64,000 bases of DNA from Polyangiales bacterium (GTDB lineage Bacteria > Myxococcota_A > Polyangia > Polyangiales > Ga0077539): NCBI GenBank assembly GCA_044229975.1, contig JBGARZ010000008.1:32001-96000 (forward strand), given 5' to 3'. The position numbers and the translations under genes are program-made. Below the pieces are notes generated by a model. The model saw only the letters and a list, made by a program, of their open reading frames with translations. It did not search any database and had not been told where the DNA came from. Shown piece by piece: positions 35,016 to 54,599 of this stretch; position 1 is the stretch's first letter, and every line of letters starts with the position of its first letter.

Positions 35016-35381
35016 TCACAGCGGCGTGAGGTCGATGGTCACGGCCTGTCCCCGCACGTGGCACTCGTCGCCCGTCACCACGATGGTTCGCGGCGCCGAG
35101 GGCTGATACCCCTGCGCCGTCACGGTGAGGATGTACGTTCCCTCCCGCTCGCCCGCCCCCGCGTACGAGCCCGGAACGCCGAAGGTCATCATCGTCTCGC
35201 GGTACGCGCCGTCGACCAGCACCAGCGTCGCGTTGCTGACCGGGGCGCCGGTTCGCGTATCGCGGACGGTGGCGCTCACCCCAAAGGCGTAGTTCGTGGT
35301 GCAGGGCGTCCCGCCAAGACAGGCGGGAAGGGTGAGTGCGCCGACAGTGAGCAGCGCGGCGCAGAGAAGCAGGTGTCGCAT
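35016..35381 (-). CDS. Small lipoprotein with carboxypeptidase-regulatory-like domain
   Basis: LPAC lipobox-like motif; VRDTRTGAPV..GTYILTVTAQGY pattern. Confidence 0.7.
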   Translation of the reverse strand: MRHLLLCAALLTVGALTLPACLGGTPCTTNYAFGVSATVRDTRTGAPVSNATLVLVDGAYRETMMTFGVPGSYAGAGEREGTYILTVTAQGYQPSAPRTIVVTGDECHVRGQAVTIDLTPL

Positions 35382-35425
35382 CGGTGTCTCCTGTCGAGAC
35401 TCTCTGCAGACGGCGTACCGCGTGC

Positions 35426-36751
<1,326 letters not shown>

Positions 36752-36756
36752 GGCGC

Positions 36757-38019
36757 TCAACCCTCCTCCGCGGCGAGGGTGAGGCGCGCACGCGTCCCCT
36801 TCCCCGGTGCGCTCTCGAAGACCAGTGCGCCGCCGTGCTCCTCGGCCACCCGGCGCGCCAGCCTCACGCCGAGGCCCGTTCCGCCTTCGCGCGTCGTGAA
36901 GAACGCCTCGCCCACCCTCGTCGCCACCGCCTCGCTCATGCCGCGACCCGTGTCCTCTACCGTCACTGCCACTGCTCCATCGATGCGCTCCCACGACACG
37001 CGCACCGTGCCTCCGCGCGCGGTCGCTTCGAGGGCGTTGAGCACCAGGTTGAGCACGGCCTCCTTCACGCGACGCGCGTCGACCCGCGCCACCAGCGATG
37101 CACCCGCGAGGTCGAGGCTCACGCCCGCCCGCTCGGCGCGGTGACCCAACAGCCCCTCGAACGATCGCAGCGTATCGGCCACGTCCACCAACTCGCGCGT
37201 GAGCTCGCCCAGCGGTCGCGAGAACGAGAGGTAGTCCTGGAGGATGCGCTCGATGCGCGCGACCTCGCCGCTCATCACCTCCAGCTTCTTGCGGTCGTCG
37301 GGGCGCTCGGCGCTCTCGGCCAGCAGGTCGGAGAGACCCTTGATGGCCGTGAGCGGGTTCTTGATCTCGTGGGCCACCTGCGCGCCCATGGCCTCCATCG
37401 CGTGGTGCCTCGCTTCGGCGCCCGCGAGGAGCTCTTCGCCGGCGCCCGCGAGCGCGTCGCCCGCGTGGGCGTAGGCGTCCGAGAGGCTCGTCACGCCGAC
37501 CCAGAGGAGCGCGAGCGCGGTGAGCGTCGCCACCGCGGACATCGCCCGCGCCGTCGACGAGGCCAGCGGCGGAAAGGGGAAACCCGATGGGACCAACGTC
37601 AACACGACGAGCACGACGACGAGCGCGATGAGCAACGCGCGGCCCGATGGGGCGCGACCGAAGGCGGCGAAGCCCACCACCGTCGGCGCGAAGAGCAGCG
37701 GGAGCAGCGGGCTGGTGAGGCCGCCGGTGCCGAGGGTCCCCATGGTGATGCCGAGGAGGGTGACGAAGAGCGAGAGCAGAAACGCGCGCTCGGTGACCAG
37801 CGAACGACGACCGCGCCACGCCTCCCAGGCGAAGAAGCAGAGCAGCACCGAGAAGCCGGCGAGCACGACGCCGACCTGACGCTGTGGTGCATCGCTCGCC
37901 GAGAGCAGCGCGGACTGGAGGAGGATCGCGGGCGCGACGATCCACGGGCGGCGACGGAGGAAGGCCGTCGCGACGGCGCGGAGCTGCGCGGGCCGGAGCG
38001 GGGTGGACGGCGCAGACAT
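36757..38019 (-). CDS. Membrane sensor histidine kinase
   Basis: Multiple TM helices; H-box AHEIKNPL, N-box NLVLNALEA, DTGRG, FFTTREGGTGLG. Confidence 0.93.
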   Translation of the reverse strand: MSAPSTPLRPAQLRAVATAFLRRRPWIVAPAILLQSALLSASDAPQRQVGVVLAGFSVLLCFFAWEAWRGRRSLVTERAFLLSLFVTLLGITMGTLGTGGLTSPLLPLLFAPTVVGFAAFGRAPSGRALLIALVVVLVVLTLVPSGFPFPPLASSTARAMSAVATLTALALLWVGVTSLSDAYAHAGDALAGAGEELLAGAEARHHAMEAMGAQVAHEIKNPLTAIKGLSDLLAESAERPDDRKKLEVMSGEVARIERILQDYLSFSRPLGELTRELVDVADTLRSFEGLLGHRAERAGVSLDLAGASLVARVDARRVKEAVLNLVLNALEATARGGTVRVSWERIDGAVAVTVEDTGRGMSEAVATRVGEAFFTTREGGTGLGVRLARRVAEEHGGALVFESAPGKGTRARLTLAAEEG

Positions 38020-38103
38020 CGGGCGACTCTATCGCAAGCGACGAGCCGCTCTCGCCAACGCCCCCCAGTGCGTCCTTACCCGGAGGGACGCGTTGGGGTG
38101 GCC

Positions 38104-38205
38104 CTGGATGTCCAGAAGACCGTCAGCGCCTGTAAGGCACTCCGTACAGCGCCGCTCGAATCCTGCTGCCAACCAGGCCGTTCGTGCACATGGCACGCGC
38201 CGTGG
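38104..38205 (+). promoter_or_regulatory. Candidate enhancer palindromes and imperfect sigma-54 promoter
   Basis: CTGGA-TG-TCCAG (38104-38115), CTGTA-N10-TACAG (38130-38149) and TGGCACGCGCCGTGG (38191-38205; -24 element good, -12 GG instead of GC), divergent from a sigma-54 two-component system. Confidence 0.35.
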
Positions 38206-38218
38206 AGACACCGCCGCC

Positions 38219-38866
38219 ATGTCCACCACCATCATCGCCTCGCCATCGCCTGCTCCCCCCTCGCGCCACGTCTGGTCGGCGCTCGCGCTCTGGGCCGCTG
38301 CCGCCGTCTCCTTCGCCGCATCGGGCCTGCTCAGCGTTCTGCCGCGACCGGCCATCCCGCTGCTGATCTGGAGCCCGGTGGTGACCTTCGTGGTGGCCTA
38401 CTGGCAGAGCCCCACGCTCCGTGCCTTCGTGGCCAACGTCGACCTCCGCATCCCGGTGCTCTACCACCTCGTGCGCGTGCTCTTCGGCGCGCTCTTCTTG
38501 ATGGAGATGAACGCCGGCAACCTCCCCGCCGCCTTCGCGAAGATCGCAGGCCCCGGGGACATCGCCGCCGGGCTCCTCGCCCTGCCCGCCGCGCACCTCG
38601 CCACGCGCTCCGACAAGACCTCCCGCACGCTCCTCCTCGCCTGGAACGTCCTCGGCCTGCTCGACATCCTCGCCGTCTTCTTCACCGCTCAGCGGCTGCT
38701 CCTCGTCGTGCGCGACGAGCGCTTCTTCCAGACCTTCCAGCGCATGCCGTACGCCGCGCTCCCGCTGCTCGTGGTGCCGCTCATCCTCGTCACGCACCTC
38801 GTCGTCTTCCTCCGCCTGCGCGCCAACGCTGGTAACCTCCCGCGCCATGAAGAGCGCGAAGTGTGA
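38219..38866 (+). CDS. Hypothetical integral membrane protein
   Basis: About six hydrophobic segments; GDIAAG, WNVLGLLD motifs; GGAG upstream of ATG. Confidence 0.75.
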   Translation: MSTTIIASPSPAPPSRHVWSALALWAAAAVSFAASGLLSVLPRPAIPLLIWSPVVTFVVAYWQSPTLRAFVANVDLRIPVLYHLVRVLFGALFLMEMNAGNLPAAFAKIAGPGDIAAGLLALPAAHLATRSDKTSRTLLLAWNVLGLLDILAVFFTAQRLLLVVRDERFFQTFQRMPYAALPLLVVPLILVTHLVVFLRLRANAGNLPRHEEREV

Positions 38867-39110
38867 GAACTGCGGCGCGGGCGTCTCCCCCGGCGCAGTG
38901 AGCTGCCCCTACTGCGGAACGACCTTCGTGGCGGCGGCGCCCGGCGCGCCGAGCGCCCCGTCGGGCGCCAACCCCGAGGTGGTGCGGCTCATCCGCACGG
39001 GCGACAAGATCGGCGCCATCAAGGTCTATCGCGAAGCGACGAAGTGCGGCCTGCGCGAGGCGAAGGACGCCGTCGAGGCCATCGAGCGCACGCTCAGCGG
39101 CGGACGCTGA
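38847..39110 (+). CDS. Zinc-ribbon plus ribosomal L7/L12 C-terminal-like domain protein
   Basis: CENCG..CPYCG then KIGAIKVYREATKCGLREAKDAVE. Confidence 0.75.
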   Translation: MKSAKCENCGAGVSPGAVSCPYCGTTFVAAAPGAPSAPSGANPEVVRLIRTGDKIGAIKVYREATKCGLREAKDAVEAIERTLSGGR

Positions 39111-39116
39111 CCGACC

Positions 39117-39992
39117 TCACCAGCGCAGCGTGCGTAGCGTCGTCGCAGCGAGCAGCCCGACGCCCCCGAGCACCACGCCCGACGCCGCCATACGGAGCCA
39201 CAGCGCGTTGGTCACCTGGCCTACCTCCAGCGGCGTCGCGGTGATCGCCTGCTCGACCTCGCCCTCCCGGTAGCGGCCCGCGTCCTTCGTCGCGTGCCTC
39301 ACCACGACCACCCCGTCGTTCGACATGCCCGCCAGCCGCAGCCACGACCGCGCGGGGACGGCGCCCGTCCAACGCTCGATAGGCTCGACGCGCGCTCCCT
39401 CTGTGGCGAGCAGCCGGCGCCAGCGCCACAGCCACCGTGCGCTCGACAGCAACGCTGCCAGCGCACCAACCGCAGCGACGGCTGTCAGCGCCAGCATCGT
39501 CGGCCCCAGCACCACGCTCGCGGCCTGCCCGTAGAACCGCCCCGAGGTGCGCGCGTTGTCGACGCGCAGGAGGGTCTCGCACAGCGCCGCGAAGGCCGAC
39601 GCCGCCGCGCCGAGCGTCACCCGATCGCGCGCGTCGTCGGAGTCGTGGGGGACACCTCGGTGCAACGCGAAGGTGAGCGGCGCCAGCAGCGCGGCGTGGA
39701 GCACCGGCTCGATCACGCGGTCGATGCTCACGAAGGTGCGGCCACCCTCATGCGAGAGCCACGCCATGGAGTCCGGTGCCGCGAGATGGCGGACGGCGAC
39801 GAAGCCCACGATGGTCACGACGAAGGCCGCCTCGGCGCGCTCGGCATACGAGGCCGCCGCGACGAGCAACGCCGAGAGCAGCGCCAGCAGCGCCACCCGA
39901 TGGTCGCCGTCGACCTGCCCGGCGAGCACCGGCGCGAACACCACCACCACGGCGACCACCCGCGCGACCCAGCGCAGCGTCGACCCTCTCAC
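39117..39992 (-). CDS. Hypothetical membrane protein
   Basis: Several TM segments; GTG start overlaps the upstream stop. Confidence 0.55.
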   Translation of the reverse strand: MRGSTLRWVARVVAVVVVFAPVLAGQVDGDHRVALLALLSALLVAAASYAERAEAAFVVTIVGFVAVRHLAAPDSMAWLSHEGGRTFVSIDRVIEPVLHAALLAPLTFALHRGVPHDSDDARDRVTLGAAASAFAALCETLLRVDNARTSGRFYGQAASVVLGPTMLALTAVAAVGALAALLSSARWLWRWRRLLATEGARVEPIERWTGAVPARSWLRLAGMSNDGVVVVRHATKDAGRYREGEVEQAITATPLEVGQVTNALWLRMAASGVVLGGVGLLAATTLRTLRW

Positions 39993-40594
39993 GGCGCGAA
40001 CCACCCCGCAGGAACGGTCCCCTGCAAGCAGCTGATGGTGCGCGGCGCCCACGGCGTCGACCACCTCGCGCGGCGCGGGGCGTCGGCCGTCCCTTCGATG
40101 ATCCCCTCGTCGGCGGACCAGTCGGCGCGCACCCCCGGCGCGACGCCGTGCAGCCCGCTCTGGTGGTACGCGACGATGTACGTGTGACCCGCGACGCGCG
40201 CGCCGAGGAAGTCCGAGAGGCGCTCGGCGAAGTCGATGCCGACGCGAGCGCCGACGGTGTGGCAGGTGCGAAACCACACGAGCGCGTCGGGGGCGAGACG
40301 CTCTCGCAGCGCCTCCATCTTCGCGCGCTGACGGTGCCCCGCGGTGAGCGCCGACGCATCCAACGGAACGCCATCGATGAGGGCGCTGCCCCAGGTTCCG
40401 TGTCCCCAGTATTGGATCTCGCGGATGGGCTCTGGCTGTGATGCAAGCCAGGTGAGGGCTTCGTCCCAGCTCTCGGCGCCGAGGGTGGCGTCGATGCGAT
40501 CGAGCGCGCGGTAGAGGCCGCCGCCGACGCGCCACACCGGGGAGAGGCCGCGACCCTTGGTCACGCAGGTTCGGTCGTAGACGAGCACGCGCAT
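39989..40594 (-). CDS. Hypothetical protein, DUF4347-like (GHG..C pattern)
   Basis: MRVLVYD..IQYWGHG..VWFRTC..GARVAGHT. Confidence 0.6.
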   Translation of the reverse strand: MRVLVYDRTCVTKGRGLSPVWRVGGGLYRALDRIDATLGAESWDEALTWLASQPEPIREIQYWGHGTWGSALIDGVPLDASALTAGHRQRAKMEALRERLAPDALVWFRTCHTVGARVGIDFAERLSDFLGARVAGHTYIVAYHQSGLHGVAPGVRADWSADEGIIEGTADAPRRARWSTPWAPRTISCLQGTVPAGWFAP

Positions 40595-40638
40595 GGCACC
40601 GCGATGGTGGGTGGAGCGACGACGCAGGGCAAGCGCCT

Positions 40639-41349
40639 CTACGGCTGGACGGGCAGGCGCGGCAGCGAGCGGTCGATGCTGATGTCGAGCGGAAAGCCGA
40701 CGCCCACGCGGAGATACGGGCCGTGCTGCCCGTAGGCGTACTCCCACCCGGCGTCGACGTTGAACGACAACCCCACCGGGATGACTGCCCGCGCGAAGAC
40801 GCCCGCCGCGGCGCCCCCGCCGAGCTGCAACGGAGAGAGCTCGGACTGCGGACGCCCGCGCGAGTCGAGCCCGTCGGGCACCCAGCGCCCTTCGCCGCCG
40901 ATGATCCCCTCCACCAGCGCCCCCACCGAGAACGCCTCGCGAAACGCCCGCCCGTCGTACTCCCTCACGTGGAAGTGGTTCCCGCAGGGGTCGCGCCGCA
41001 GGTGAGGGTCGTTGGGGTCGAAGGGCCGATCGCTGTTGACCCAGTGGTTGTTGACCTCGAAGACCCGCCACAGGTGCAGCCGTAGCTGCAACGCTCCCTC
41101 GAACCGCCCCTCGTCGTCGCGCCCTCGCATGAGCCGTGGCGACACCGCCGCGGTCACCGACTGTCGCCGCGCACCACCCGGTCCCATCTCCACCGAGGGC
41201 AGTCCCATCTCGACCCAGTGTCCGCCGCCGCGCACCGCCCAGTTCATGCGCGCAGGCTCGATGCGGGTCTGCGCCATGCAGCCCGCGACGCTGGCCAGCG
41301 CGATCGTGAGGAGCAGTGGTGGGGTTGGGGTGGGTCGCCGCCGACGCAT
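40639..41349 (-). CDS. Hypothetical lipoprotein / outer-membrane protein
   Basis: VAGC lipobox-like motif; C-terminal amphipathic beta-like segments. Confidence 0.55.
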   Translation of the reverse strand: MRRRRPTPTPPLLLTIALASVAGCMAQTRIEPARMNWAVRGGGHWVEMGLPSVEMGPGGARRQSVTAAVSPRLMRGRDDEGRFEGALQLRLHLWRVFEVNNHWVNSDRPFDPNDPHLRRDPCGNHFHVREYDGRAFREAFSVGALVEGIIGGEGRWVPDGLDSRGRPQSELSPLQLGGGAAAGVFARAVIPVGLSFNVDAGWEYAYGQHGPYLRVGVGFPLDISIDRSLPRLPVQP

Positions 41350-41442
41350 CACCCTTCGTCTACGCGCGAGCTCGCCCGAACCTTCCCGCGCGACGAAGGC
41401 AATGCTTGAACGCCCGGCGCAGCCACCGTAGACGATGAAGGG

Positions 41443-43722
41443 ATGCACGGAGTCATCACGCGAGAGCGCGTCGCCATCGGCTGTATCTCTCTCGCGGTGG
41501 TGCTCTTCGAGGTGCTCGTCACCCGGGTGCTCAGCGTCACGCTGTCGTATCACTTCGCGTTCCTCGCGGTGTCGCTCGCGATGCTCGGGCTCGGGGCGCC
41601 CGGCGTGTGGTTCTCGCTGTCGCCGCCGGGGCCGCTCGCGCTGCGGCGCGCCCTCTTCGCGAGCGCCGTCGCCCTGCCGCTGTCGATGCTGCTCATCGTC
41701 CACATCGGCGCCCCCTTGCGCGGCGTGACGACCTTCTGGGTGCTCTGCCTCCTCGGCCCGATGCTGTGCCTCGGGGCGGCCGTCTGCCTGCTCCTGCTGC
41801 GGGCGCGCGGTCGCGAGGTGGGCCCCATGTACGCCGCCGACCTCGCGGGCGCCGCGCTCGGTGCGGTGCTCGCCGTTCCGCTGCTGCACGGGCTTCCGAC
41901 GCCGTCGGTCATCGCCTCACTGGCGCTGCTCCCGCTCGTCGCGCTCGCGGCCCTCGACCCCGCGGCAAGACGCGCGGCCCTCGCGCTCGGCCTCGTCGTC
42001 GTGGCGGGCGTGGCGTGGGGCAGGCCGTTTCGTCTGCGGTACACGCGCTACTACCTGGAGACCCGTCCCTCGATGTACGAGCGGTGGACCCCGACGGCGC
42101 GCGTCACCGTCAACGACCGCAGCGCCGTCGGCCAGTTTCTCGGCTGGGGCATGGGGACGCGCTGGCAACGCCACGACGTCGAGCACCTCTGGATCGACCA
42201 GGACGGCAGCGCGGGAACCGAGATCCTGCGCTACCGCCGCGGCGACCCGTACCCCGACCCGCTGCTCTTCGACGTGACCGCCGCGGCCTACCAGATCGGC
42301 ACTCCGCGACGCGCGTGCATCGTGGGTGGCGGCGGCGGGCGCGACATCCTCACGGCGCTCGCGGCGGGGGTTCCGTCGGTCGACGTGGTCGAGCTCAACC
42401 CGTACATCGTCGACGCCGTCTCACGCGCCTTCGGATCGTACTCGGGCGACCCCTACCACCTGCCCGGTGTGACGGCGTACGTCGGCGAGGGGCGCAGCCA
42501 TCTGAGCCGCTCCACCACGCGCTGCGACGTGCTCCAGATCTCCCTCATCGACACCTTCGCGGCCTCCTCCGCGGGCGCCTACGCGCTCACCGAGAACAGC
42601 CTCTACACCGTCGAGGCGATGCGAACCTACTGGTCGCGTCTCGGCCCCGACGGCGTGCTCTCCATCAGCCGCTACTCGCGCGGCGCGGGCTGGGTCGAGT
42701 CGGTGCGCCTGCTCCTGCTGGAGCTCGAAGCGCTGCGCGCCGAAGGAGTCGACAACCCCCATCAGCACATCGTGGTCTTCGACACGGGTGGCGTGGCCAA
42801 CACGATGGTGTTCCGCCGACCCGTCGATGCGGCGCGCATCGCCGAGCTGTCCCGCGTGGCCGCGCTGCGGGGCTTCACGCCGACGTGGCCCGTCGTGTCG
42901 ACGGAGCGCACGGTCGCGCCGATGGTCGCCGCGATGCGCTTCGGCGAGCGGCCCTTCGTGCAGCGGGGCTTCGACGTGTCGCCGCCGACGGACGACCGGC
43001 CGTTCTTCTTCCAGACGCTCGACATCCTGCGCGGGTCGGACAGCACCGCGGCCCGCGGCTCGGCCGAACGCGAGCAGAGCGTGTCGCTCCTCCGCCGCCT
43101 GATGCTGGGCCTCGCGGGTCTCACGATGGCGCTCTTCGTGCTGCCGCTGGTGCTGCGGGGAAGACTGCCGTCGGCGCCGGGCGCGGGGCGGGCGACGGCG
43201 TTCTTCGCGGCGCTGGGCTTCGGGTTCATGTTCGTGGAGATTCCGCTGGTGCAGCGGCTGGCGCTGTACCTGGGGCACCCGAGCTACGCGACGACGGTGG
43301 CGCTGGGCGCGCTGCTGCTGGGCGCGGGCGTCGGGTCGGCGCTGGCGCCGCGGGTGCCGACCGCACGAGCGACGACGGCGCTGCTGGTGGTCCCGGTGGT
43401 GGTGGCGGTGACGACGCAGCTCCTCATCGGGCCGGTGGCGCGGGCGACGGAGCACTGGTCGCTGGGGGCGCGCATCGCGCTGACGGCGGCGGCGGTGTTC
43501 GCGGCGGGCGTGGCGATGGGGGTGCCGTTTCCGCTGGGGATGTCGCGCTTCGATGATCGCGACCGGAGCTGGTACTGGGCGGTCAACGGCGCGGCCGGGG
43601 TGCTGGCGAGCGTGCTGGCATTGGGGCTGTCGCTGATCGCGGGGCTGTCGAGCGTGATGATGATCGCGCTGGCTTGCTACGCGCTGGCGGCGCTGCTGTA
43701 TCCGAAGGTGGAGGAGGGCTGA
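41443..43722 (+). CDS. Membrane-fused spermidine-synthase-like SAM-binding protein
   Basis: N- and C-terminal TM bundles around IVGGGGGRD, VVELNP, GEGRS, ENSLYTVEA, PPTDDRPFFF. Confidence 0.85.
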   Translation: MHGVITRERVAIGCISLAVVLFEVLVTRVLSVTLSYHFAFLAVSLAMLGLGAPGVWFSLSPPGPLALRRALFASAVALPLSMLLIVHIGAPLRGVTTFWVLCLLGPMLCLGAAVCLLLLRARGREVGPMYAADLAGAALGAVLAVPLLHGLPTPSVIASLALLPLVALAALDPAARRAALALGLVVVAGVAWGRPFRLRYTRYYLETRPSMYERWTPTARVTVNDRSAVGQFLGWGMGTRWQRHDVEHLWIDQDGSAGTEILRYRRGDPYPDPLLFDVTAAAYQIGTPRRACIVGGGGGRDILTALAAGVPSVDVVELNPYIVDAVSRAFGSYSGDPYHLPGVTAYVGEGRSHLSRSTTRCDVLQISLIDTFAASSAGAYALTENSLYTVEAMRTYWSRLGPDGVLSISRYSRGAGWVESVRLLLLELEALRAEGVDNPHQHIVVFDTGGVANTMVFRRPVDAARIAELSRVAALRGFTPTWPVVSTERTVAPMVAAMRFGERPFVQRGFDVSPPTDDRPFFFQTLDILRGSDSTAARGSAEREQSVSLLRRLMLGLAGLTMALFVLPLVLRGRLPSAPGAGRATAFFAALGFGFMFVEIPLVQRLALYLGHPSYATTVALGALLLGAGVGSALAPRVPTARATTALLVVPVVVAVTTQLLIGPVARATEHWSLGARIALTAAAVFAAGVAMGVPFPLGMSRFDDRDRSWYWAVNGAAGVLASVLALGLSLIAGLSSVMMIALACYALAALLYPKVEEG

Positions 43723-43733
43723 CGAGGTTGCCC

Positions 43734-43876
43734 GGCCCGGCCGCCGCGGGTTGGAAACCCACGGCAGCCAAGGGAAAGCCCGCGCGGCGGGCTGGTCACT
43801 GTCCTCGCACATGGACAGGCCGCTCAGCGGCCTTTCCCTTGGCTGCCGTGGGTTTTCAACCCGCGGCGGCCGGGCC
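43734..43876. repeat. REPIN-like 143-bp hairpin (two inverted REP-like units)
   Basis: GGCCCGGCCGCCGCGGGTTGGAAACCCACGGCAGCCAAGGGAAAG.. pairs with ..CTTTCCCTTGGCTGCCGTGGGTTTTCAACCCGCGGCGGCCGGGCC; inner CTGTCC/GGACAG stem around loop TCGCACAT. Confidence 0.85.
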
Positions 43877-43936
43877 AGACGACATCAAGAGAGATGTGCC
43901 CCTGACGGGTGGACGGCCGCGCGCTACGGTCGTCGC

Positions 43937-44239
43937 ATGGGATGGGCGGACGGACATATCAGTCGGCTGTTGGGTGGTGAGACGGTGCAGTTTCGGCCGC
44001 GCGGCAACAGCATGGTGGGGAAGATTTCGAGCGGCGACCTGTGCAGGGTGACGCCGCTCGGAGAGACGGTGCTCACGACGGGCGACATCGTGCTGTGCCG
44101 GGTGAGCGGCAGCCAGTACCTGCATCTGGTGAAGGCGATTCAGGGGGAGCGGTTGCAGATCGGCAACAACCGCGGCGGCATCAACGGGTGGGTGACGCGG
44201 CGGCAGATCTTCGGGCGGCTCGTCGCCGTCGAGCCGTAG
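43937..44239 (+). CDS. Small S24/S26 peptidase-like protein
   Basis: PRGNSM (Ser motif), GDIVLC, YLHLVK, IGNN. Confidence 0.65.
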   Translation: MGWADGHISRLLGGETVQFRPRGNSMVGKISSGDLCRVTPLGETVLTTGDIVLCRVSGSQYLHLVKAIQGERLQIGNNRGGINGWVTRRQIFGRLVAVEP

Positions 44240-44246
44240 TCCCCGC

Positions 44247-45179
44247 TCAGGCACCACCGCAGCCACACTCTTCATACCGGCAGTCCATGATGATGTTGTC
44301 GCCGCGCGTCGGGAAGCGCGGCGCCGCGGACCCCTCCGGCGGTGGCGTCGACATCACCAGTCGTTGCCTCTCCAAGCTCCTCTGCTCGCGTCGGATCCAG
44401 GCGCCTGCCCACAGGTTCGTCACGACCGTCAGGCAAACGAGCCCCCGCATCCACGGCCCGACGGCAGTCGTCGTCGGAGCCCCCGACCGCACCGCGACGG
44501 AACGATACGGCAGCGTTCCGACCAACCGCTCGGACGACGCGCGAGCCCGACCGGTGCGCGCGATGAGCGCCAGCGTCAGCAGCGCTGATCCGGCGAGCAC
44601 GCCCCACGCGACCGACGTCGCCCGATCAAGCCGATGGATGAGCGCGAGCCGCGCCGACCGCTGCGGGTACGTCGGCACCCACGCGCGAAACCTCACGGAC
44701 AGTCGCGCCCCCGGCTCTCCCCGACACCGGAACTGCATCAGTCGGTCATCGCTGCTCTGTCGCACCTCGATGGGACCGTGCGTACAAGCGAACCGTCGAC
44801 GCCCCAGGAGCCACACCTCTCCTGCTTCGCCGCGCTCCGACGGCAAGCTCCCGCCCCCCACAAACGACAGGTTGCCGAAGTCCGCCGTCAACTTGGAACG
44901 AGACGGCGTCTCACCAGGGGCGAGCGGCGCGACGGGGCGCCACTCCGGGTTGATCGTATCCCACGCGTCCTCCATGCGCGCGGGGTCGGCGGCGACGGCG
45001 TGGTCGACCGGCTCCCACTCGTGCACGTCGGTGCCGCCCCTCGTGACGCGATCGACGGATGACCTCGCGCGCCCGACGAGACGCGACGTGCTCGCGAGGT
45101 AGGCCCCGAAGAGCGCGAGAAGGACAACCAGCGGAGCCCATCGGCGGAGCGAGCGCGGCGTGACCATGAACACCACCAC
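44247..45179 (-). CDS. Hypothetical membrane protein
   Basis: Open frame with 2-3 hydrophobic segments, downstream of the ECF/anti-sigma pair. Confidence 0.45.
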   Translation of the reverse strand: MVVFMVTPRSLRRWAPLVVLLALFGAYLASTSRLVGRARSSVDRVTRGGTDVHEWEPVDHAVAADPARMEDAWDTINPEWRPVAPLAPGETPSRSKLTADFGNLSFVGGGSLPSERGEAGEVWLLGRRRFACTHGPIEVRQSSDDRLMQFRCRGEPGARLSVRFRAWVPTYPQRSARLALIHRLDRATSVAWGVLAGSALLTLALIARTGRARASSERLVGTLPYRSVAVRSGAPTTTAVGPWMRGLVCLTVVTNLWAGAWIRREQRSLERQRLVMSTPPPEGSAAPRFPTRGDNIIMDCRYEECGCGGA

Positions 45180-45203
45180 GCGCGAGTCGCGAGAATCTTT
45201 GCG

Positions 45204-45566
45204 CTACTCGCACTCGGTGGTGATGACGATCTGTGTGCCCGGGATCTCACCCGCCACGCGCACCTGCACCGCGGGCATCGCCCGTCGCGTCACGGCTTGC
45301 GTCGCTGCTGCGCTCCGTCGATCGAGCCGCCACGCCCACAGCGCGAACACCGCCGCCATCGCCGCCACCGCCGCGAGCACCCAGGGGCGCGCTCGTCGTC
45401 GCGGTCGACGCTCCTCGCGGTACATCGCGGTCAGCAACGTCGCCATGGCCCGCGTGCGCGCGACCTCCTCGCGGGCCTCCGGGTCGCGGCTGAGCGCATC
45501 GACCACCTCGGGTGACGTCGGCTCTCCCAGCGCGAGGGCGGTCCAGCGGTCGTCGTCAGAGTCCAT
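45204..45566 (-). CDS. Putative anti-sigma factor (single TM)
   Basis: Overlaps the ECF sigma stop; helical N-terminus (WTALALGE..EEVARTR) then one TM helix. Confidence 0.55.
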   Translation of the reverse strand: MDSDDDRWTALALGEPTSPEVVDALSRDPEAREEVARTRAMATLLTAMYREERRPRRRARPWVLAAVAAMAAVFALWAWRLDRRSAAATQAVTRRAMPAVQVRVAGEIPGTQIVITTECE

Positions 45567-46053
45567 CGTCGTCCTCCATCTGCTCGCGCAGCGCGCGGAG
45601 CGTGGTGTGCAGCAACCACCCCACGTACGAGACGCTCCACCCGGAGCGCTCGTGGATCTCCTGGTAGCTCAGCCCCTCGTCGAAGCGCATCCGCAGCACA
45701 TCCCGCTGTCGCTCGGGGAGCGCCGCCACCGCCGCCCGCAGCCGCCCGATGCTCTCGGCGAGCAGCAGCGCCTCGTCGGGCGTCGTCGCGGAGTCGGGGG
45801 TCGGCAGGTCGCGGGCGCGCACGCGGTCACGGCGGTGCAGGTCGACGGCGCGGTGGCGGCATACGGTGAAGAGCCACTCGGCCTCGCGGCCTTCGACATC
45901 GCGACGGTCGGCCTCGCAGAGACGGGCGAAGGCGTCCTGCACCATGTCGGCACCGCGGTCGCGGCCAGCGAGACGCGCCGCGAAGCGCACCAGCCGGGGT
46001 GCGGTCTGGGCGATCACGTCGCGCAGCCAGTGCGGCCGCTCGTCAGGGGTCAT
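45556..46053 (-). CDS. ECF (sigma-70 group 4) RNA polymerase sigma factor
   Basis: Region 2 DMVQDAF..WLFTVCRHRAVD; region 4 LPERQRDVL..EGLSYQEI. Confidence 0.88.
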   Translation of the reverse strand: MTPDERPHWLRDVIAQTAPRLVRFAARLAGRDRGADMVQDAFARLCEADRRDVEGREAEWLFTVCRHRAVDLHRRDRVRARDLPTPDSATTPDEALLLAESIGRLRAAVAALPERQRDVLRMRFDEGLSYQEIHERSGWSVSYVGWLLHTTLRALREQMEDDDGL

Positions 46054-46160
46054 GGCGCATCGAAGGGCACACTCGACCGCTACCACGCATGAGCGCGGCG
46101 GATCTTTGTGACAATCGACGAAGGGTGGGGGGTGAGGGCGAAGGGAACGGGCAGATGCGA

Positions 46161-46961
46161 TCAGGCGACGGGCGCGGGTTCGGGCGCGGGCTCTCCGGCG
46201 GGCTCGTCGGAGCCGCGCTTGCTGGACCACAGCGGCGGAACCTTCGCGTCGACGTCGCGGAGGCCGAAGCAGACGACACCGGCGACGCGGAGCTGGTCGT
46301 AGCGCTCTTCGAGGAGGCGCAGGAGGCGGTCGCGGTCGAGGCGTTCGGCCTTGCCCAGCGGCGCCGTCGTGACGAAGCCGTTGGTGGGGGTGATGTGCTG
46401 GACGAGCCAGGTTCCCTTGGTGGCCAGGGTGGCGAGCTGCTCGTCGGTGAAGGGGTGACGGTTGGCGAGGGCCGTGGCGCACTCGCGGAAGAGGGCGACG
46501 ATGGCGACGCAGTCGCGGGCCTCGTCGAGCTTGCCGCTGCCTTCACGAATGGCGCACACGCGACCGGCGGGCACGAGGTTGAGCGCGGCGGCGATCTCCA
46601 GATAGGAGAGCGTGAGAGAGCGTAGCGGGCGGACAATGGCGAGGGCCGCGTCGATCTCGCGGGTGGACGGAGGGGCGACAGGCACGCGGTCGGCCGCATG
46701 GACCACAGCGAGCGCGAGCGTGGGGAGCTCGGCGAGGGCGACGACGTCGACGGCGGGGAGCAGGCGGGCGACGGCGGGGAGGCGCGCGGACATGACGGAC
46801 ATCGCGCGGTCGACGTTGTGCCGGAGGATGGCGACGTCGCGGCGGGGCGCGTAGGCGGCCGGGAGGGCGACGGCCTCCGCCACGACGCGGAAGTGGGTGA
46901 AGGCGCGCGCGGCGTCGGTGGTGACGAAGGCGCTGGAGAGGATGGCGGCGAGGTTCTTCAT
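46161..46961 (-). CDS. Hypothetical alpha-helical protein
   Basis: GGAG RBS before MKNLAA; coherent 266-aa helical protein; no recognisable catalytic motif. Confidence 0.7.
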   Translation of the reverse strand: MKNLAAILSSAFVTTDAARAFTHFRVVAEAVALPAAYAPRRDVAILRHNVDRAMSVMSARLPAVARLLPAVDVVALAELPTLALAVVHAADRVPVAPPSTREIDAALAIVRPLRSLTLSYLEIAAALNLVPAGRVCAIREGSGKLDEARDCVAIVALFRECATALANRHPFTDEQLATLATKGTWLVQHITPTNGFVTTAPLGKAERLDRDRLLRLLEERYDQLRVAGVVCFGLRDVDAKVPPLWSSKRGSDEPAGEPAPEPAPVA

Positions 46962-47184
46962 GGTGGACTCCGATGGCGCTCGGGGGGTTGGAGAGGGGAC
47001 CCGATGCGCGGGGTGTCTTCGGAGCGGTGGGTCGGCGGGGTTTCGTGATCGGAGGAGAAAAGTGATGACGCGGAGGTTTAGGGCGCGAGAGCCATGGAAC
47101 GATGACGCACCGCCCCAGGAGGCAACGGGCGACGGGTCGAGAGGTGATTGGCAGGGTGGGGAGGCTACCGGGCGACCTGGCGGA

Positions 47185-47252
47185 GGGTGATGGGCAGGGT
47201 GCAGAGGCAACGGGGCGATGGGGCGATGGGTGATGGGCAGGGTGCAGAGGCA
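47185..47252 (+). repeat. Perfect 25-bp direct repeat pair
   Basis: GGGTGATGGGCAGGGTGCAGAGGCA at 47185-47209 and 47228-47252. Confidence 0.85.
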
Positions 47253-47354
47253 GCGGGCGACAGCGCGAAGGGGTGATCGGGAGGGTGGGGAGGGTGGGAA
47301 GGATGGATCGGTGGGTTCGTGCGGGTGTGTCGCGCGACGTGATAGATCGCGTTC

Positions 47355-47831
47355 ATGCCCTGGCAGCACGCTCTCTCTCCCAAGCGGACAGCGCTGGTCT
47401 CCGCGGCCCTCCGGCATGTGGATGACGCGACGGCGCTCCTCGCGTCCTCGCCGGTGCAGGCGTTTCACCTCGCGGGATTCGGGCCCGAGTGCGCTCGAAA
47501 GGCTGCGCTGACCGTCCCCGAGGCATCACAGATCGCCCTGGACAAGGCGATCGGCCATGGGTTTCACGATGTCACCGAGCTAGCGCTGGCCATCGCCATT
47601 AACCTCGACCCGCTGGCCTCCCGCTACGAGTTGACGGACTGGCAGACGCGCTTTCCGGCCATGGTGAAGTGGAACGAACAGGCCCGTTACGAAGCGAGTG
47701 ACGGACGATCCCGTCGTGAGGCTGAGGTGGTGCTCCGGGAAGCCGCGGACGCCGTTTCCGACGTTGTCGCCGCACTCTGGGCTGATGGTCGCCTCCCCCC
47801 CTTGAACCATCTCACTCAGGTGCGCCCATGA
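47355..47831 (+). CDS. HEPN-like domain protein
   Basis: AALRHVDDA..AFHLAGFGPECARKA (ExxxK), a central His (GH) and W..ARY, the layout of stand-alone HEPN proteins. Confidence 0.65.
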   Translation: MPWQHALSPKRTALVSAALRHVDDATALLASSPVQAFHLAGFGPECARKAALTVPEASQIALDKAIGHGFHDVTELALAIAINLDPLASRYELTDWQTRFPAMVKWNEQARYEASDGRSRREAEVVLREAADAVSDVVAALWADGRLPPLNHLTQVRP

Positions 47832-49141
47832 CCTTCGATGAGGTTCTTCCGACGCTCCTTCGCGCCGGCGAGGAATGGCCGCACGCGGCGAACCTGAAGC
47901 GGGTCGCGGTCGTGAGAGACCTGCGTGGTCGGGTGCGCGTCGTGGTCGAGCAATTCAAGCGCGACAACGCACAGATCAAGGATCTTACCGCACATCTCAG
48001 GCAAGAGCTGGGTGACTGGTTCGCGGACGACGTGCTCAGTACTTCCGGGGGAACACCCGCGGAGAACAGCGTGGCATCGAAGGTCTTGGACAACGCGAGG
48101 GAACCGGTCACCGTGGGGTATCCGGACGGCGCTGGCGGCATTTCGCCGCTCACGGCGAACAGATGGTGGCTGCTTGAGCGTCGTGTTGGCAAGCAACCCT
48201 GGCTTGAGGGATCTACAACCCCGCCTTGGAGGCTGACGGCAGCCGGACCCTCGACAGTGACTTTCTACTCGTTCAAGGGAGGCGTTGGGCGCACGACGAC
48301 ACTCGCCGCGTGCACGCTGCTTGCCGCGGAGGCTAGCGAGGACGTCGTCGTGATCGATCTCGATCTGGAAGCACCGGGCCTCGCATCTCTATTCGGCATC
48401 ACCTCGAGTCGCGGGGTGTTGGACTTCCTGGTCGATCATGTTGCCACCAGGAGCACAGACATCGGGCAGATCGTTTTCGCACCCACCAACCTCCCTTCGC
48501 GACTCTCAGATCGAATCAAGGTGATTCCAGCCGGCGCGTTGGGGCATGGATATCTGGAGAAGCTCGCTCGCCTCGACTTCGCGAGCAGCACCATCGATCA
48601 GAAAGCTCAGTCGCCCATGCGGGCGGCACTACACGCTCTGCTCCATCAGGTCAGAACGCAGCTCAACCCACGCTGGATCTTCGTCGATGCGCGAGCGGGC
48701 TTGCATGACCTTGCGGGTCTATCGCTGCACGGGCTCGCGCACCTCGATGTGTTGTTCTCGCGAGCCAATCGCCAGGGATATGATGGCCTGGGCATCGTCC
48801 TTCGAGCGTTGTCGCGACAGACGCACAGCAGTGCTGCGCGCGTAGTCTTGGTCCACGCGATGGCCGCAGTGAGCGATGAGGTAGCGGAAACGCAAAACTC
48901 CAGACTCCGCCATGTGGCGTACGAACTCTTCAAGGATCTGGTTTACTCGGCGCGAGGCGTGACGTTTCAGGAAATGGCCCTGGACGGCGACCACTTCCCT
49001 TGGATGATTCGGAGGAACGAGCGCATCGAGCTCAACGACAACCTGAATGATGTGACTGAAGCGCTCGGCAGCCTCGACTATCGGGAGGTCTGGAAGCGGA
49101 TCCGCCTACTGACGACACCGGTAGGGACTGGTGCGCCGTGA
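47828..49141 (+). CDS. ParA/MinD-like ATPase with variant Walker A (KGGVGR) and extra N-terminal domain
   Basis: TFYSFKGGVGRTT, IDLDLEAPG, FVDARAG; about 140 aa N-terminal extension starting VRDLRGRVRV. Confidence 0.85.
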   Translation: MTFDEVLPTLLRAGEEWPHAANLKRVAVVRDLRGRVRVVVEQFKRDNAQIKDLTAHLRQELGDWFADDVLSTSGGTPAENSVASKVLDNAREPVTVGYPDGAGGISPLTANRWWLLERRVGKQPWLEGSTTPPWRLTAAGPSTVTFYSFKGGVGRTTTLAACTLLAAEASEDVVVIDLDLEAPGLASLFGITSSRGVLDFLVDHVATRSTDIGQIVFAPTNLPSRLSDRIKVIPAGALGHGYLEKLARLDFASSTIDQKAQSPMRAALHALLHQVRTQLNPRWIFVDARAGLHDLAGLSLHGLAHLDVLFSRANRQGYDGLGIVLRALSRQTHSSAARVVLVHAMAAVSDEVAETQNSRLRHVAYELFKDLVYSARGVTFQEMALDGDHFPWMIRRNERIELNDNLNDVTEALGSLDYREVWKRIRLLTTPVGTGAP

Positions 49142-50595
49142 ACTCCGCTGAAGTACGATCGTCCCGATTGGAGGCACTTGAGAACCTGGGGGACGCAGCG
49201 AGTGCACGAACGTTCCTTCCGCCAAGGACTGCGAAGCGAATTCTCGATCCGTCCGTGGTCGTGCTGTTGGGTGCCAGGGGCAGCGGGAAGACCGCGTTGG
49301 CGAGGCTCCTGGTTGAAGCGATGCCGGGGGCCCCTGACAACAAGTATGAGTTCGTGCGCGCCATTGGGGCACCGCCCAACTTCTGGTTTGACGCGTTCTC
49401 TCAGGCGTCGGCCCATCATCCCGACGCGAGCGTGCTTGATGATTTTGTGCGACGTGCAAGCGATGAAGATCTACGCAACTTCTGGCTAGTCCGTCTTCTG
49501 CTGCGACTGAGCGACAGCGCAGGTCAGATCCCCGGATTTTCCGAGTCGATCAACGAACCGGAAAAGATGGCGAGGGCGATCGAGTATGACCGCTGGGCAG
49601 ACGGGGAGATCAGGAAGAACCTGAATATCGTGATCAACCTGCCCTCTTCGGAGCGGGCGCGACTGATCGCAATGCTTGATCAAGGGGAAAAGGCGATGAC
49701 GTCCGGGTTTGTGACCGCCGTCTATGACGACCTCGACGCCATCGGCAGCTTCGACCCGACGCTCCGCGCTCGCTTCATCCGTGCGCTGCTCGCGATGTGG
49801 TCGAGTCTCTCCACCCGCTACCGGCACATTCGCGCAAAGATCTTCCTCCCCGCAGACCTCTTCGACACGCGGCAGCTCGACACCGTCGACGGCAGCAAGC
49901 TCCTCGCCCGCGCCGAGCGCATGGAGTGGGACGGCCTCTCCCTCTATCGACTCGTGCTCCGTCACCTTGCCCAACAGGGTGAGGACACGCGCGCCTGGCT
50001 CAGTGAGTTCGGCCTACGCTTCGATGACCTCGGCACCGACCTCGGTTGGATGCCCATCGACGTCACCGAAGAGGCCATCGCTCGTTGGCTCGGCACCACG
50101 TTCCACCCGATCATGGACGTCAACGGCACCCGCGACTACGTCCAACACTGGATCCTCCATCGCCTCCGTGACGGTCGCGATCGCGTGTCGCCTCGCACTC
50201 TGCTTGGCTTCTTTTCCGGCGCCGCAAAGGCCGCGCTCCACCGCCTCCCGACCGCCCATCACGGGCAACTGCTCGATACAGTCGACGCTGTCGACGCCAT
50301 CCAGCAGGCCGGATCCGACCGCGTCGCGGAGATTCGCGGCATCTACGAGTGGGTTGATCGACTTGGTGCGCTGCGCGGGCGCGTTGTCCCGCTTCCCCGC
50401 GCCGAGGTGGAGCGACTGATGGCGACCGACCCTGACAACGCTCCGCGCCCAACGGGTACACGCGACGGGCGCACGGTCACCGAAGAGCTGCTCCGGCTCG
50501 GCATGCTGCGTGACCTCCGCGTTGACGACCTGCTCGATGTCCCCGACGTGTTCATCAAGTACTTCGGAGCACTCCGAACCGCTGCCCCCCCATGA
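49138..50595 (+). CDS. P-loop ATPase (Sll1717-like / STAND-related)
   Basis: Walker A GARGSGKT, Walker B AVYDDLD, KIFL..DLF, SPR; helical C-terminal region. Confidence 0.75.
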   Translation: MNSAEVRSSRLEALENLGDAASARTFLPPRTAKRILDPSVVVLLGARGSGKTALARLLVEAMPGAPDNKYEFVRAIGAPPNFWFDAFSQASAHHPDASVLDDFVRRASDEDLRNFWLVRLLLRLSDSAGQIPGFSESINEPEKMARAIEYDRWADGEIRKNLNIVINLPSSERARLIAMLDQGEKAMTSGFVTAVYDDLDAIGSFDPTLRARFIRALLAMWSSLSTRYRHIRAKIFLPADLFDTRQLDTVDGSKLLARAERMEWDGLSLYRLVLRHLAQQGEDTRAWLSEFGLRFDDLGTDLGWMPIDVTEEAIARWLGTTFHPIMDVNGTRDYVQHWILHRLRDGRDRVSPRTLLGFFSGAAKAALHRLPTAHHGQLLDTVDAVDAIQQAGSDRVAEIRGIYEWVDRLGALRGRVVPLPRAEVERLMATDPDNAPRPTGTRDGRTVTEELLRLGMLRDLRVDDLLDVPDVFIKYFGALRTAAPP

Positions 50596-51455
50596 CCCCC
50601 GCCCGCGCCGCTGCCGCGCTCTCTGTTGCGATGTTCGTCGCCACAGTTGCCGCCGGCTGGGCCGCCTCCGGCCAACCCTTCTCCCTCCGTTGGTCCCCCT
50701 CCTCCGCGCCCGCCTCCCCCACGCGCCCGCTCGTCCTCCCCGATCGCACCATCCCCGTCGCCACCCTTCGCCTCGGCCACGCCAACTACCAGCGCCACTG
50801 CGCCCACTGCCACGGCCCTTCCGGCGACGGCGCTGGACCCTCTGGCCTCTCGCTCTCCCCTCCCCCTCGCGACTTCCGCCGCGCCGTCTTCAAGTTCGCC
50901 GCCGTCCCCAGCGGCTCGCTCCCACGCGACGCCGACCTCGCCCGCACCATCCGCCACGGCCTCTCCGGCACTGCCATGCCCGCGTGGTCCTTCGGCGATC
51001 GCGAGCTCGACGCGCTCATCCAGTATCTCAAGACCTTCTCCCCCCGCTGGCAGCGCGAGTCCCCTCCCTCCCTTGCCGACCCCGCCACCCCCGCTCCCGC
51101 CCCCGACCCCTGGCGCGCCAACCCCTCCGACGCCGTCGCTGAAGGCGAGCGCGTCTATCACCGCGAGGCCCTCTGCGCGACCTGCCACCCCGCCTACGAC
51201 CCCACCGCCCCCGCACCTTCGCGTCCCGACCCGCTACGCCCCGTCGCCCTCTACGAGCCCGCCCACGCCACCTGGGCGCTCGCGCCCGACTTCCGTCGCC
51301 AACCGATGCGCGCGGGCAACTCCGTCGACGACCTCCACCGCGCCATCGCCTTCGGCCTCGGCGGAACCCCGATGCCCACCTGGCAGGGTTCCCTCCCCGA
51401 CCGCTCGCTATGGGCGCTCGCCTACTACGTTCGCTCCCTCACGCCGCGCGAGTGA
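50592..51455 (+). CDS. Di-heme cytochrome c
   Basis: Signal/TM segment; CAHCH and CATCH heme motifs; PRDF, AMPAW and PMPTW axial-Met regions. Confidence 0.88.
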   Translation: MTPARAAAALSVAMFVATVAAGWAASGQPFSLRWSPSSAPASPTRPLVLPDRTIPVATLRLGHANYQRHCAHCHGPSGDGAGPSGLSLSPPPRDFRRAVFKFAAVPSGSLPRDADLARTIRHGLSGTAMPAWSFGDRELDALIQYLKTFSPRWQRESPPSLADPATPAPAPDPWRANPSDAVAEGERVYHREALCATCHPAYDPTAPAPSRPDPLRPVALYEPAHATWALAPDFRRQPMRAGNSVDDLHRAIAFGLGGTPMPTWQGSLPDRSLWALAYYVRSLTPRE

Positions 51456-53221: not shown

Positions 53222-53721
53222 CTACCGCCCCACGTCCCTCCCCAACGCGTGCTCCAGTCGTACGCGCGCCACCCGCCCCTCGCTCGCCACCCGCAGCGTC
53301 GTCGCACGCATGGTCGCCTCCGCCGCGCGCTCGCTCTCCCGCGACGCCGAGACCGACTGCGGGATGCGCAGCAGGTAGTCCGTCAGCGGGATCGACAGCG
53401 TCGCCTGCGTCACGAAGGAGTCCGTCAGAAACGGAATCGCCAACGGAACGCTCACGAATTGCGTCCCCTGCGGAATGGGCCCGGCGCTGACGCCCGGCGC
53501 CGCGACGAGCGTCCCGAGGTTGGCCCGGTCGAGCGGTGACAAACGGTTGTAGCGGGCCGCGAGGTTGAGCCGCGGGAGGTACGCGACCCACGCCTGCTCG
53601 ACACCCGCCGCGGCGGCGGAGAGTTCGTCGCGTCGGGCGCGCAGGTCGAAGCTGGTGCGCGCGGCGGCGGCAGCGACGGCGTCGGCGGTGAGGCCACCGG
53701 GCTGCGCGAGCAGCGACGAGA
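53222..53721 (-). pseudogene. TolC-family outer-membrane factor remnant (no signal peptide, internal deletion)
   Basis: GGLTADAVAAAA..AWVAYLPRLNLAARYNRLS..ATLSIPL joined directly to a C-terminal-like RVARVRLEHALGRD. Confidence 0.6.
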
Positions 53722-54270
53722 GGTGCGCGTCGAGGGTGGTGAGCGTGTCCTGCGCGACGGGGTTGTAGACGTCGACGTGGCTGGTGATGTGCTCGACGTG
53801 GAGCTTCGTCTGCGAGTCGATGAGGGTGCCCATCCAGGCGGTTCCGATGGAGCCGCCGACCTCGCGGGTGAGCGCGTAGAGGCCGGTGGCGCCGCCGCGC
53901 TGCGACATCGGCAGGTCGGCGAGGCTCATCACCGTCAGCGGCACGAACACGAAGCCCAGGCCGAAGGCGCGGAGCATCTGCGGGTGGGTGGGGTCCCAGA
54001 AGCTCGCGGTGCCCGTGAGGCTGCCCGACATGAAGAGGCTCGCAGCGACGAGGACGATGCCGAAGCCCACGAGGTAGCGGCCGTCGACCTTTCCCCCCGA
54101 AGCGCCCGATGAGCGGCATGATGAAGATCTGGATGACGCCCGCGGCGAGGAAGATGCGGCCGATCTCCAGCGCCGTGTAGCGCATCACCGCGCCGCAATA
54201 GAGCGAGAAGGCGTAGGCGCCGGAGAAGAGCGCGACGCCGACGAGGAAGTTGATGCCCGTGCCCGCGCCG
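53722..54270 (-). pseudogene. DHA2 (EmrB/QacA) MFS transporter fragment with frameshift
   Basis: GTGINFLVGVALF..MPLIGRFGGK / VDGRYLVGFG..GLGFVFVPL..GGATGLYALTREVGGSIG; +1 shift at the C6 run 54093-54098; 5' half missing. Confidence 0.75.
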
Positions 54271-54599
54271 AGTGGCCCGGCAACGTGCGCGAACTGGAGA
54301 ACACCCTCGCCCGACTGATCGCGCTGGGCGACGGCGGCGAGCTGGGTCTGTCGTCGCTGCCCGTGGTGACAGGCGTTGCGCGCACCCCGACGGTCGCACA
54401 CGACGACGAGCCCGCGGACGAGGTCGCGCGCGCGGCGGGCGATCGGCTGACGCTGCGCGAGCAGGTCGAAGCCTTCGAGCGCGGGATCATCGCCCACACG
54501 CTCCGCACCTGCGGCGGCAACCAGTCCGAGGCGGCGCGGCGGCTGGGGACGAGCCGGGTGACGCTCATCGACAAGATCCACCAATACAAGCTCGGGTGA
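54271..54599 (+). pseudogene. C-terminal fragment of a sigma-54-dependent regulator
   Basis: Begins abruptly at WPGNVRELEN and ends with the HTH GNQSEAARRLG; no receiver or AAA core upstream. Confidence 0.8.

Follow-up and report, generated by a model that had tools for sequence, protein, structure and literature searches.

A HEPN–ParA–ATPase cassette of a Polyangiales bacterium matches an already catalogued family of candidate defence systems

The 64,000-nucleotide stretch of contig JBGARZ010000008.1 (assembly GCA_044229975.1, Polyangiales bacterium) analyzed here, called the window and supplying all coordinates given without a locus name, contains a 3.2-kb cassette of three genes for a HEPN protein, a ParA-like ATPase and a second P-loop ATPase (Table 1). 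The question raised by this locus is whether the cassette is a defence system and, if so, whether it is a new one. An earlier note on this DNA had presented it as an undescribed defence candidate corresponding to no named system. We conclude that the cassette is real but not new, its family having been catalogued by two groups; its status as a defence candidate is upheld. The copy is intact and has the unfused three-gene form. Gene 1 overlaps gene 2 in an ATGA (47828–47831) and gene 2 overlaps gene 3 in a GTGA (49138–49141), exactly where the earlier note had placed these overlaps, and the motifs that it had read are present: KGGVGRTT at residues 150–157 of gene 2, and GARGSGKT (45–52) and YDDLD (196–200) in gene 3. 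A further overlap that had escaped mention, an ATGA at 50592–50595, is shared by the stop of gene 3 and the downstream cytochrome c gene. As had also been said, no parB, minC or minE gene adjoins the cassette (immediate neighbours, part of the window genes having been scanned), the flanking genes being an open reading frame (ORF) of no known family and the cytochrome c gene.

Table 1. Positions of the cassette genes and of neighbouring features in the window
Feature	Position	Strand	Remarks
Gene 1, predicted HEPN protein of HEPN-T/PF05168 type	47355..47831	+	158 amino acids; PDC-M28A; PA-HEPN1 of HINPO
Gene 2, putative MNT-like N-terminal domain fused to ParA/MinD-type ATPase	47828..49141	+	437 amino acids; PDC-M28B
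N-terminal domain of gene 2, residues 1-125	47828..48202	+	alpha/beta; model pLDDT 89
Gene 3, predicted ORC/CDC6-like (STAND-related, Sll1717-like) P-loop ATPase	49138..50595	+	485 amino acids; GTG start; PDC-M28C
Cytochrome c gene of the host, outside the system	50592..51455	+	Pfam PF13442/PF00034
Insert between coxI and cytochrome c gene	35016..50591	.	~15.6 kb; cassette at right end; congener comparison
coxI	33514-34983		

The three genes were matched, in order, by the PADLOC profiles PDC-M28A (E 2.1e-7, profile positions 5–136 of 138), PDC-M28B (E 7.5e-61, 4–412 of 438) and PDC-M28C (E 7.2e-35, 23–465 of 480), these being matches of adjacent genes to individual models. The matches span residues 2–413 of gene 2 and 16–473 of gene 3, and gene 1 is a distant member of PDC-M28A (29.5 bits). 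The set to which these profiles belong consists of phage defence candidates (PDC) that were predicted by embedding and offered for future tests (Payne et al., 10.1101/2024.01.29.577857); the main text of that paper does not mention PDC-M28 by name. The second account, and the only relevant one of HINPO found in the literature, is a bioRxiv preprint by Li, Burroughs and Aravind (10.64898/2026.10.19.760177). According to its accessible text, HINPO combines a HEPN gene, a ConB2 ParA gene with an inactive, fast-evolving Pol-beta-like N-terminal domain, and an ORC-CDC6/STAND gene, occurs also in a form with fused ParA and ATPase, and is enriched in multicellular bacteria. The same text lists as ConB2 signatures a Ser that starts Walker A, an Arg in place of the second Walker A Lys, and PG after the DxD of sensor-1. 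The ParA part of gene 2 carries all three of these ConB2/PriB2 sequence signatures: its Walker A reads S-F-K-G-G-V-G-R-T-T, with S148 in 48/51 and R155 in 51/51 sequences, and a D-L-D-L-E-A-P-G stretch is nearly invariant (P183 in 51/51, G184 in 50/51). The Lys-to-Arg change, which the earlier note had pointed out, is a published signature of the whole ParA branch. Since all three genes match PDC-M28A, B and C in order, the layout equals the HINPO description and the ConB2 signatures are present, the cassette is, judged by its sequence, almost certainly a member of the HINPO/PDC-M28 family. The earlier note had itself named a match to a described system as the finding that would end its claim of novelty, and such a match is what was found.

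Gene 1 was not recognized directly by Pfam or NCBIfam models, and the profile of its alignment gave no sequence match among solved structures. A model built from 60 sequences is an all-helical bundle with a predicted local distance difference test (pLDDT) score of 94. A Foldseek search with this model returned HEPN proteins in most of the top rows, all at E >0.4. Structural re-alignment gave Z scores of 11.8 for TT1696, 11.6 for the sacsin HEPN, 11.0 for AF0298, 10.7 for 4NQF, 10.0 for ST0689 and 9.9 for TM0613; the six best VIA matches are HEPN proteins (root-mean-square deviation, rmsd, 2.7–3.6; 111–130 residues aligned), and the best non-HEPN protein scored Z 7.1. A weak match to MaoC (E 0.06) was ruled out by the all-helical model. 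A profile search with gene 1 found 521 representatives at E 0.001. In a distant set of 45 full-length homologues, picked by hand among 150 listed representatives, 23 match PF05168, ten of them above its cut-off; together with the structural scores, these matches bear out the HEPN assignment of the earlier note. Residues H21, E45, C46, K49, W106, R111 and Y112 are kept in 45/45 members of this set, and H68 in 42/45. The HEPN-T variant, as defined in the accessible part of Anantharaman et al. 2013 (PMC3710099), has an Ex3K motif, keeps the motif Arg, has an alternative upstream His proposed as the site, and is listed as nucleotidyltransferase-associated. Gene 1 has the Ex3K (E45-C-x-x-K49), R111 and the upstream H68. 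We conclude that the modelled protein is a HEPN-T-type HEPN.

Outside its signatures, gene 2 matches NF047398, a model of KGGVGR-motif ATPases, at 144.9 bits (cut-off 90). The C-terminal part of its ParA region is the most variable, with a mean identity of 27% versus 51% for the core. For the N-terminal domain, a model from 50 sequences (pLDDT 89) shows the order helix, strand, strand, helix, strand, helix, strand. When 48,161 chains were searched with this structure, ranks 1–3 were taken by the minimal nucleotidyltransferases (MNTs) 8XEH, 1WOT and 5YEP at weak Z scores of 5.4–5.5 (rmsd 2.8–3.3, 85–90 residues aligned). MNTs are marked by GS and DxD motifs. At positions 35 and 37 of the domain, in strand 2, none of the 50 sequences has Asp or Glu, and most have Arg; the conserved stretch reads R30-D31-x-x-G34-R35-x-R37, its R35-x-R37 being set in register with the MNT DxD from secondary structure. 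Lacking the acidic pair, the domain is predicted to be catalytically inactive as a nucleotidyltransferase. An MNT-like/Pol-beta fold is compatible with the model, this assignment resting on the HEPN neighbour and on the HINPO preprint. The Atlas gave no usable match for the domain. A partial-stretch match to AphA (E 0.001) was rejected, no such protein being ranked by the alpha/beta model.

Gene 3 matches NF047389 (Sll1717-like) at 70.1 bits (E 1.9e-19, residues 24–401, cut-off 75) and PF24389 at 25.8 bits (E 5.7e-6, cut-off 27); 12 of 46 members of its family match PF24389 at E 0.01. Its feature neighbours in the Atlas, at 0.96–0.99, are Sll1717, ORC-CDC6-like and nSTAND1 clusters. The gene 3 product, in which the Walker A is complete, is a predicted ATPase of the ORC-CDC6/STAND clade. 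Its profile matched solved structures around the P-loop only, and DS-41 was rejected as an assignment (E 0.09, 27 residues, P-loop only). Directly after the Walker B Asp, 25/51 family members have His, 9/51 Asp and 1/51 Glu, and the Asp-Asp pair is retained here (residue 198, window position about 49729) and in the nearest kin. Many gene 3 homologues may therefore bind ATP yet hydrolyse it poorly, and the variation at residue 198 is a possible divide between hydrolysing and non-hydrolysing subtypes. Some homologues carry C-terminal TPRs (loci L004, 9739–12039, and L009, 9456–11678). Another (L023, 9769–11580) ends in a C-terminal piece of an LD-carboxypeptidase, perhaps by chance read-through.

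To see the cassette elsewhere, 54 loci were gathered by the gene 1 alignment in species-representative genomes, a sample in which HEPN-less forms could not appear and close relatives are favoured. The three genes recur together, as expected of the trio that the earlier note had picked out, in the order HEPN, ParA, ATPase in 51/54 loci; in the other three (L012, L030 and L048), no more than 200 bases separate the HEPN match from the contig end. Stop and start codons of cassette genes mostly overlap across loci, and the three genes are correlated in their pairwise identities (rho 0.65–0.68, 45 sequences). The ordered loci, the overlapping codons and the correlated identities argue that the cassette is one unit. 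In three loci (L031, L043 and L051) gene 2 or gene 3 is frameshifted or split, by decay or sequence error. At L060 (G015:C784:8816-9481) a gene 2 homologue lies inside an open frame of 866 amino acids, perhaps a fused ParA-ATPase form.

A role of the cassette against phage or mobile elements is quite probable. It is suggested by a cassette that is inserted in inverse orientation into an Hma system, where it separates hmaA from hmaB, on whose far side lies a Schlafen-domain gene (L027, 1808–11716), by another that is flanked by a DUF1156-type methylase and by a PLD-helicase (L052), and by the TPRs of gene 3 homologues, which are the usual layout of STAND sensors. As to mechanism, we narrowly favour defence by suicide or dormancy, in which a predicted HEPN RNase would be restrained by the gene 2 protein and freed upon detection of an invader by the two ATPases. 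The three proteins would be co-produced and form one complex, in which the MNT-like domain, its acidic catalytic pair lost, would serve as a non-enzymatic antitoxin by binding the HEPN dimer, as the remnant of a HEPN-MNT pair. DNA or protein of a phage or plasmid would be sensed by the ORC/CDC6-like ATPase, which in turn would shift the ParA domain to another nucleotide state; the HEPN protein, freed or switched on, would use a non-canonical site composed of H68, R111, E45/K49 and perhaps H21 to cut tRNA or rRNA; and translation would halt, aborting the infection. The wiring in particular (HEPN as output, gene 2 as restraint, two ATPases as sensor) is put forward tentatively. The HEPN-T type of gene 1 and the MNT antitoxins that rank first for the domain encoded right after it point to a HEPN-MNT origin, and the cassette likely derives from such a toxin-antitoxin pair, with a dead antitoxin fused to a ParA switch. 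The active site is suggested by the conservation of H21, E45, K49, R111 and H68 in the distant set and by the alternative-His proposal in PMC3710099. The more specific idea that HINPO as such is a rewired HEPN-MNT pair, with a steric antitoxin that transfers no AMP and a two-ATPase relay, from an ORC/CDC6-like sensor to a ParA switch, releasing a HEPN-T RNase with a non-canonical His/Arg site, we regard as possible, though doubtful.

A number of observations weigh against the proposed mechanism. The Rx4-6H motif is absent from gene 1, in which R111 is followed by Y-E-A-S-D and position 116 is Gly in 39/52 sequences and His in 1/52, so that gene 1 was rejected as a classical HEPN RNase by motif. 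The AbiV study (10.1101/2024.05.05.592566) does not validate the alternative HEPN-T site either, since, in its accessible text, RNase activity is tied to the Rx4-6H motif. If the HEPN protein were an RNA-binding sensor or scaffold without catalytic activity, with the ATPases giving the output, this would account for the missing motif and for a nearest structure such as the human sacsin HEPN, which the accessible part of PMC3710099 describes as lacking the motif; it would leave two conserved His residues, with Glu, Lys and Arg, kept in homologues down to E 1e-14 unaccounted for, and we consider it very improbable.

The N-terminal domain of gene 2 provides a second set of difficulties. C-terminal domains of adenylating enzymes tie with the MNTs (Z 5.3–5.4). 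In the Foldseek search no match reached E <0.001 and the top rank went to acyl-CoA ligases, and the profile search did not connect the domain with MNTs at the sequence level. Among the Foldseek candidates, a MamM domain scores Z 6.0; MamM/CzcD and adenylating-enzyme domains were set aside by gene context alone, and the scores permit them. Gene 3 lies just under the cut-offs of both its families, and the correlated identities fall short of proving co-evolution, because related genomes share ancestry. The accessible text of the preprint (10.64898/2026.10.19.760177) treats the N-terminal domain as distinct from MNTs, assigning it the sensing of nucleotides and ParA the leading effector role. In the model proposed there, which is the main rival of ours, foreign DNA is recognized by the ORC/CDC6-like ATPase, which seeds ParA multimers as a first and direct barrier to the invader; the HEPN protein serves only as backup. 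The basic residues R30, R35 and R37, which replace the acidic pair, could indeed bind phosphates, and the variable C-terminal part of ParA is what would be expected of an invader-facing surface. Against that model stand the HEPN gene found upstream of gene 2 in every locus examined (the loci having been gathered through HEPN), with its invariant polar residues kept, and the fact that no DNA binding or polymer formation is reported in the accessible text. We consider the published model unlikely as it applies to this cassette. If true, the rewired-pair idea would depart from the nucleotide-sensor reading of the domain.

The genomic neighbourhood adds a third set. From the flanks of 49 loci, 165 proteins were scanned (187 candidates cut to 165, with ORFs of less than 90 amino acids excluded); L012, L013, L030 and L048, in which gene 3 is incomplete, and L045, a near copy of L044, were omitted. 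Clear defence neighbours occur in 4/49 loci (L027, L052, L040 and L049), a figure that has no background control, and at the present locus neither gene adjoining the cassette had a PADLOC match. The defence-island enrichment that the earlier note had offered as a check is thus weak. Possible defence neighbours occur in four loci (L008, L053, L017 and L035). Generic matches at L003, L011, L037, L041 and L046 were discounted, and those at L043 and L051 are pieces of split gene 3. No experimental test of the family was found in a literature search beyond whose reach most subscription journals lay, and the accessible text of the preprint reports no HINPO experiment. Flanking genes vary from locus to locus, and most copies stand solo among unrelated housekeeping genes, as might a selfish or stress-response module of toxin-antitoxin type that spreads and persists without protecting from phage; the broken copies described above fit this too, and the accessible part of PMC3710099 discusses a role of HEPN-MNT pairs as stress modules. 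Such a module would scarcely need two ATPases and TPR extensions, which exceed the demands of addiction, cassettes are found embedded in Hma and adjoining restriction-modification genes, and of 72,556 plasmids one matched at E 1e-15. We consider this possibility quite improbable; both it and the non-catalytic HEPN are less likely than the model of the preprint. Suicide or dormancy through a released HEPN RNase remains the account that we favour.

The cassette is likely horizontally acquired, as the earlier note had suggested: its presence is patchy, its GC at third codon positions (GC3) is low, it stands in a split oxidase operon, and a congener has a divergent copy. Gene 2 was found in 6/41 related genomes and 3/9 within the genus, and gene 1 in 9/301 genomes of the phylum, several genomes being incomplete; no second copy of the system was found in the host genome (G000). 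By record titles, 31/54 loci belong to myxobacterial taxa and 4/54 to planctomycetes. The GC content of the cassette genes is 62–66% versus 71% for the genome, and their GC3 values (0.72–0.76) are the three lowest among the 42 called window genes of at least 140 amino acids, the next lowest being 0.82. All five GC counts made by hand in the earlier note were reproduced (60, 60, 50, 82 and 75%), and cassette GC is below that of the flanks in 43/48 loci. In the congener G001 a copy of ca. 50% identity lies at another site, versus 70–95% identity of shared flanking genes, which points to separate acquisition.

In the congeners G001, G002 and G004, coxI directly precedes the cytochrome c gene, whose orthologues are 67–72% identical. 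In the present genome this cytochrome oxidase operon is split by 15.6 kb of regulatory genes and genes of no known function, of which the cassette is the last. No promoter-like site was found, and one terminator-like site was found versus 2.4 expected. Since its start overlaps the stop of gene 3, the cytochrome c gene may be expressed from the cassette transcript. The upstream ORF (46161–46961, 266 amino acids) has no Pfam, NCBIfam or PADLOC match and three paralogues in the genome, one of which, on C23, is 76% identical at the DNA level over 1 kb (46161–47166, including ca. 200 upstream bases); it was rejected as a component of the system, as the 54 related loci contain no match to it. A repeat of ca. 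140 bases (43734–43881), REP- or MITE-like, has several genomic copies at 80–87% identity, some of them in both orientations. Beyond the insert, 53222–54599 is a patchwork of gene fragments, possibly from decay or misassembly, consisting of an ORF of 282 amino acids and a lone fragment with a Fis-type helix-turn-helix; by eye, the ORF combines a C-terminal piece of an efflux transporter with an outer-membrane-efflux-like piece, with no Pfam match at E 1e-4.

The compact, intact copy makes the family directly testable, its defined candidate residues being H21, E45, H68 and R111 of the HEPN protein, K150 and R155 of ParA, and K51, D197 and D198 of the second ATPase. Were the outcome positive, an RNase toxin gated by a ParA-type ATPase would be demonstrated, and it would become clear whether HEPN-T proteins without Rx4-6H are active RNases. 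If true, the rewired-pair idea would offer a direct test of catalysis by the alternative HEPN-T site, with a bearing on the sacsin HEPN.

Among known systems, the cassette is closest to its own family. It matches PDC-M28A, B and C in order across most of each gene, and its architecture is identical to that given for HINPO in the accessible text of the preprint, with HEPN upstream, ConB2 ParA with its N-terminal domain in the middle and an ORC/CDC6-STAND ATPase downstream; its mostly myxobacterial homologues are in line with the enrichment of HINPO in multicellular bacteria reported there. The HEPN-T assignment and the HEPN-MNT derivation proposed here, and the Walker B variation among gene 3 homologues, do not appear in that text. 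Housekeeping ParA/MinD proteins have a KGGxGK Walker A. Gene 2 has the SIMIBI P-loop core in common with them (CbiA, 25.9 bits) and differs in KGGVGR, in the extra N-terminal domain, in MinD/ParA scores of 17–22 bits against cut-offs of 180–213, and in its patchiness (3/9 genus genomes), and was rejected as a housekeeping protein on these grounds. With the HEPN (MAE_18760) and ParA/Soj dyad, for which ParA/Soj was proposed as antitoxin of the HEPN family in the accessible part of Anantharaman et al. 2013 (PMC3710099), it shares the pairing of HEPN with a ParA-like ATPase; the MAE_18760 HEPN retains Rx4-6H in a two-gene unit, whereas the cassette has three genes and a HEPN without the motif. 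As in HEPN-MNT pairs (HepT-MntA, 5YEP/7AER; 8XEH; PF05168), a HEPN gene stands beside a putative MNT-like domain. Gene 1, without Rx4-6H, is closer to TT1696 and sacsin (Z 11.8 for the former) than to HepT (Z 5.3–6.1), and the MNT-like domain, without DxD, would not AMPylate the toxin. The cassette was therefore not assigned to the classical HEPN-MNT toxin-antitoxins: there the MNT is active and stands alone, while here the domain is fused to ParA, its acidic pair is absent and a third gene adds an ATPase.

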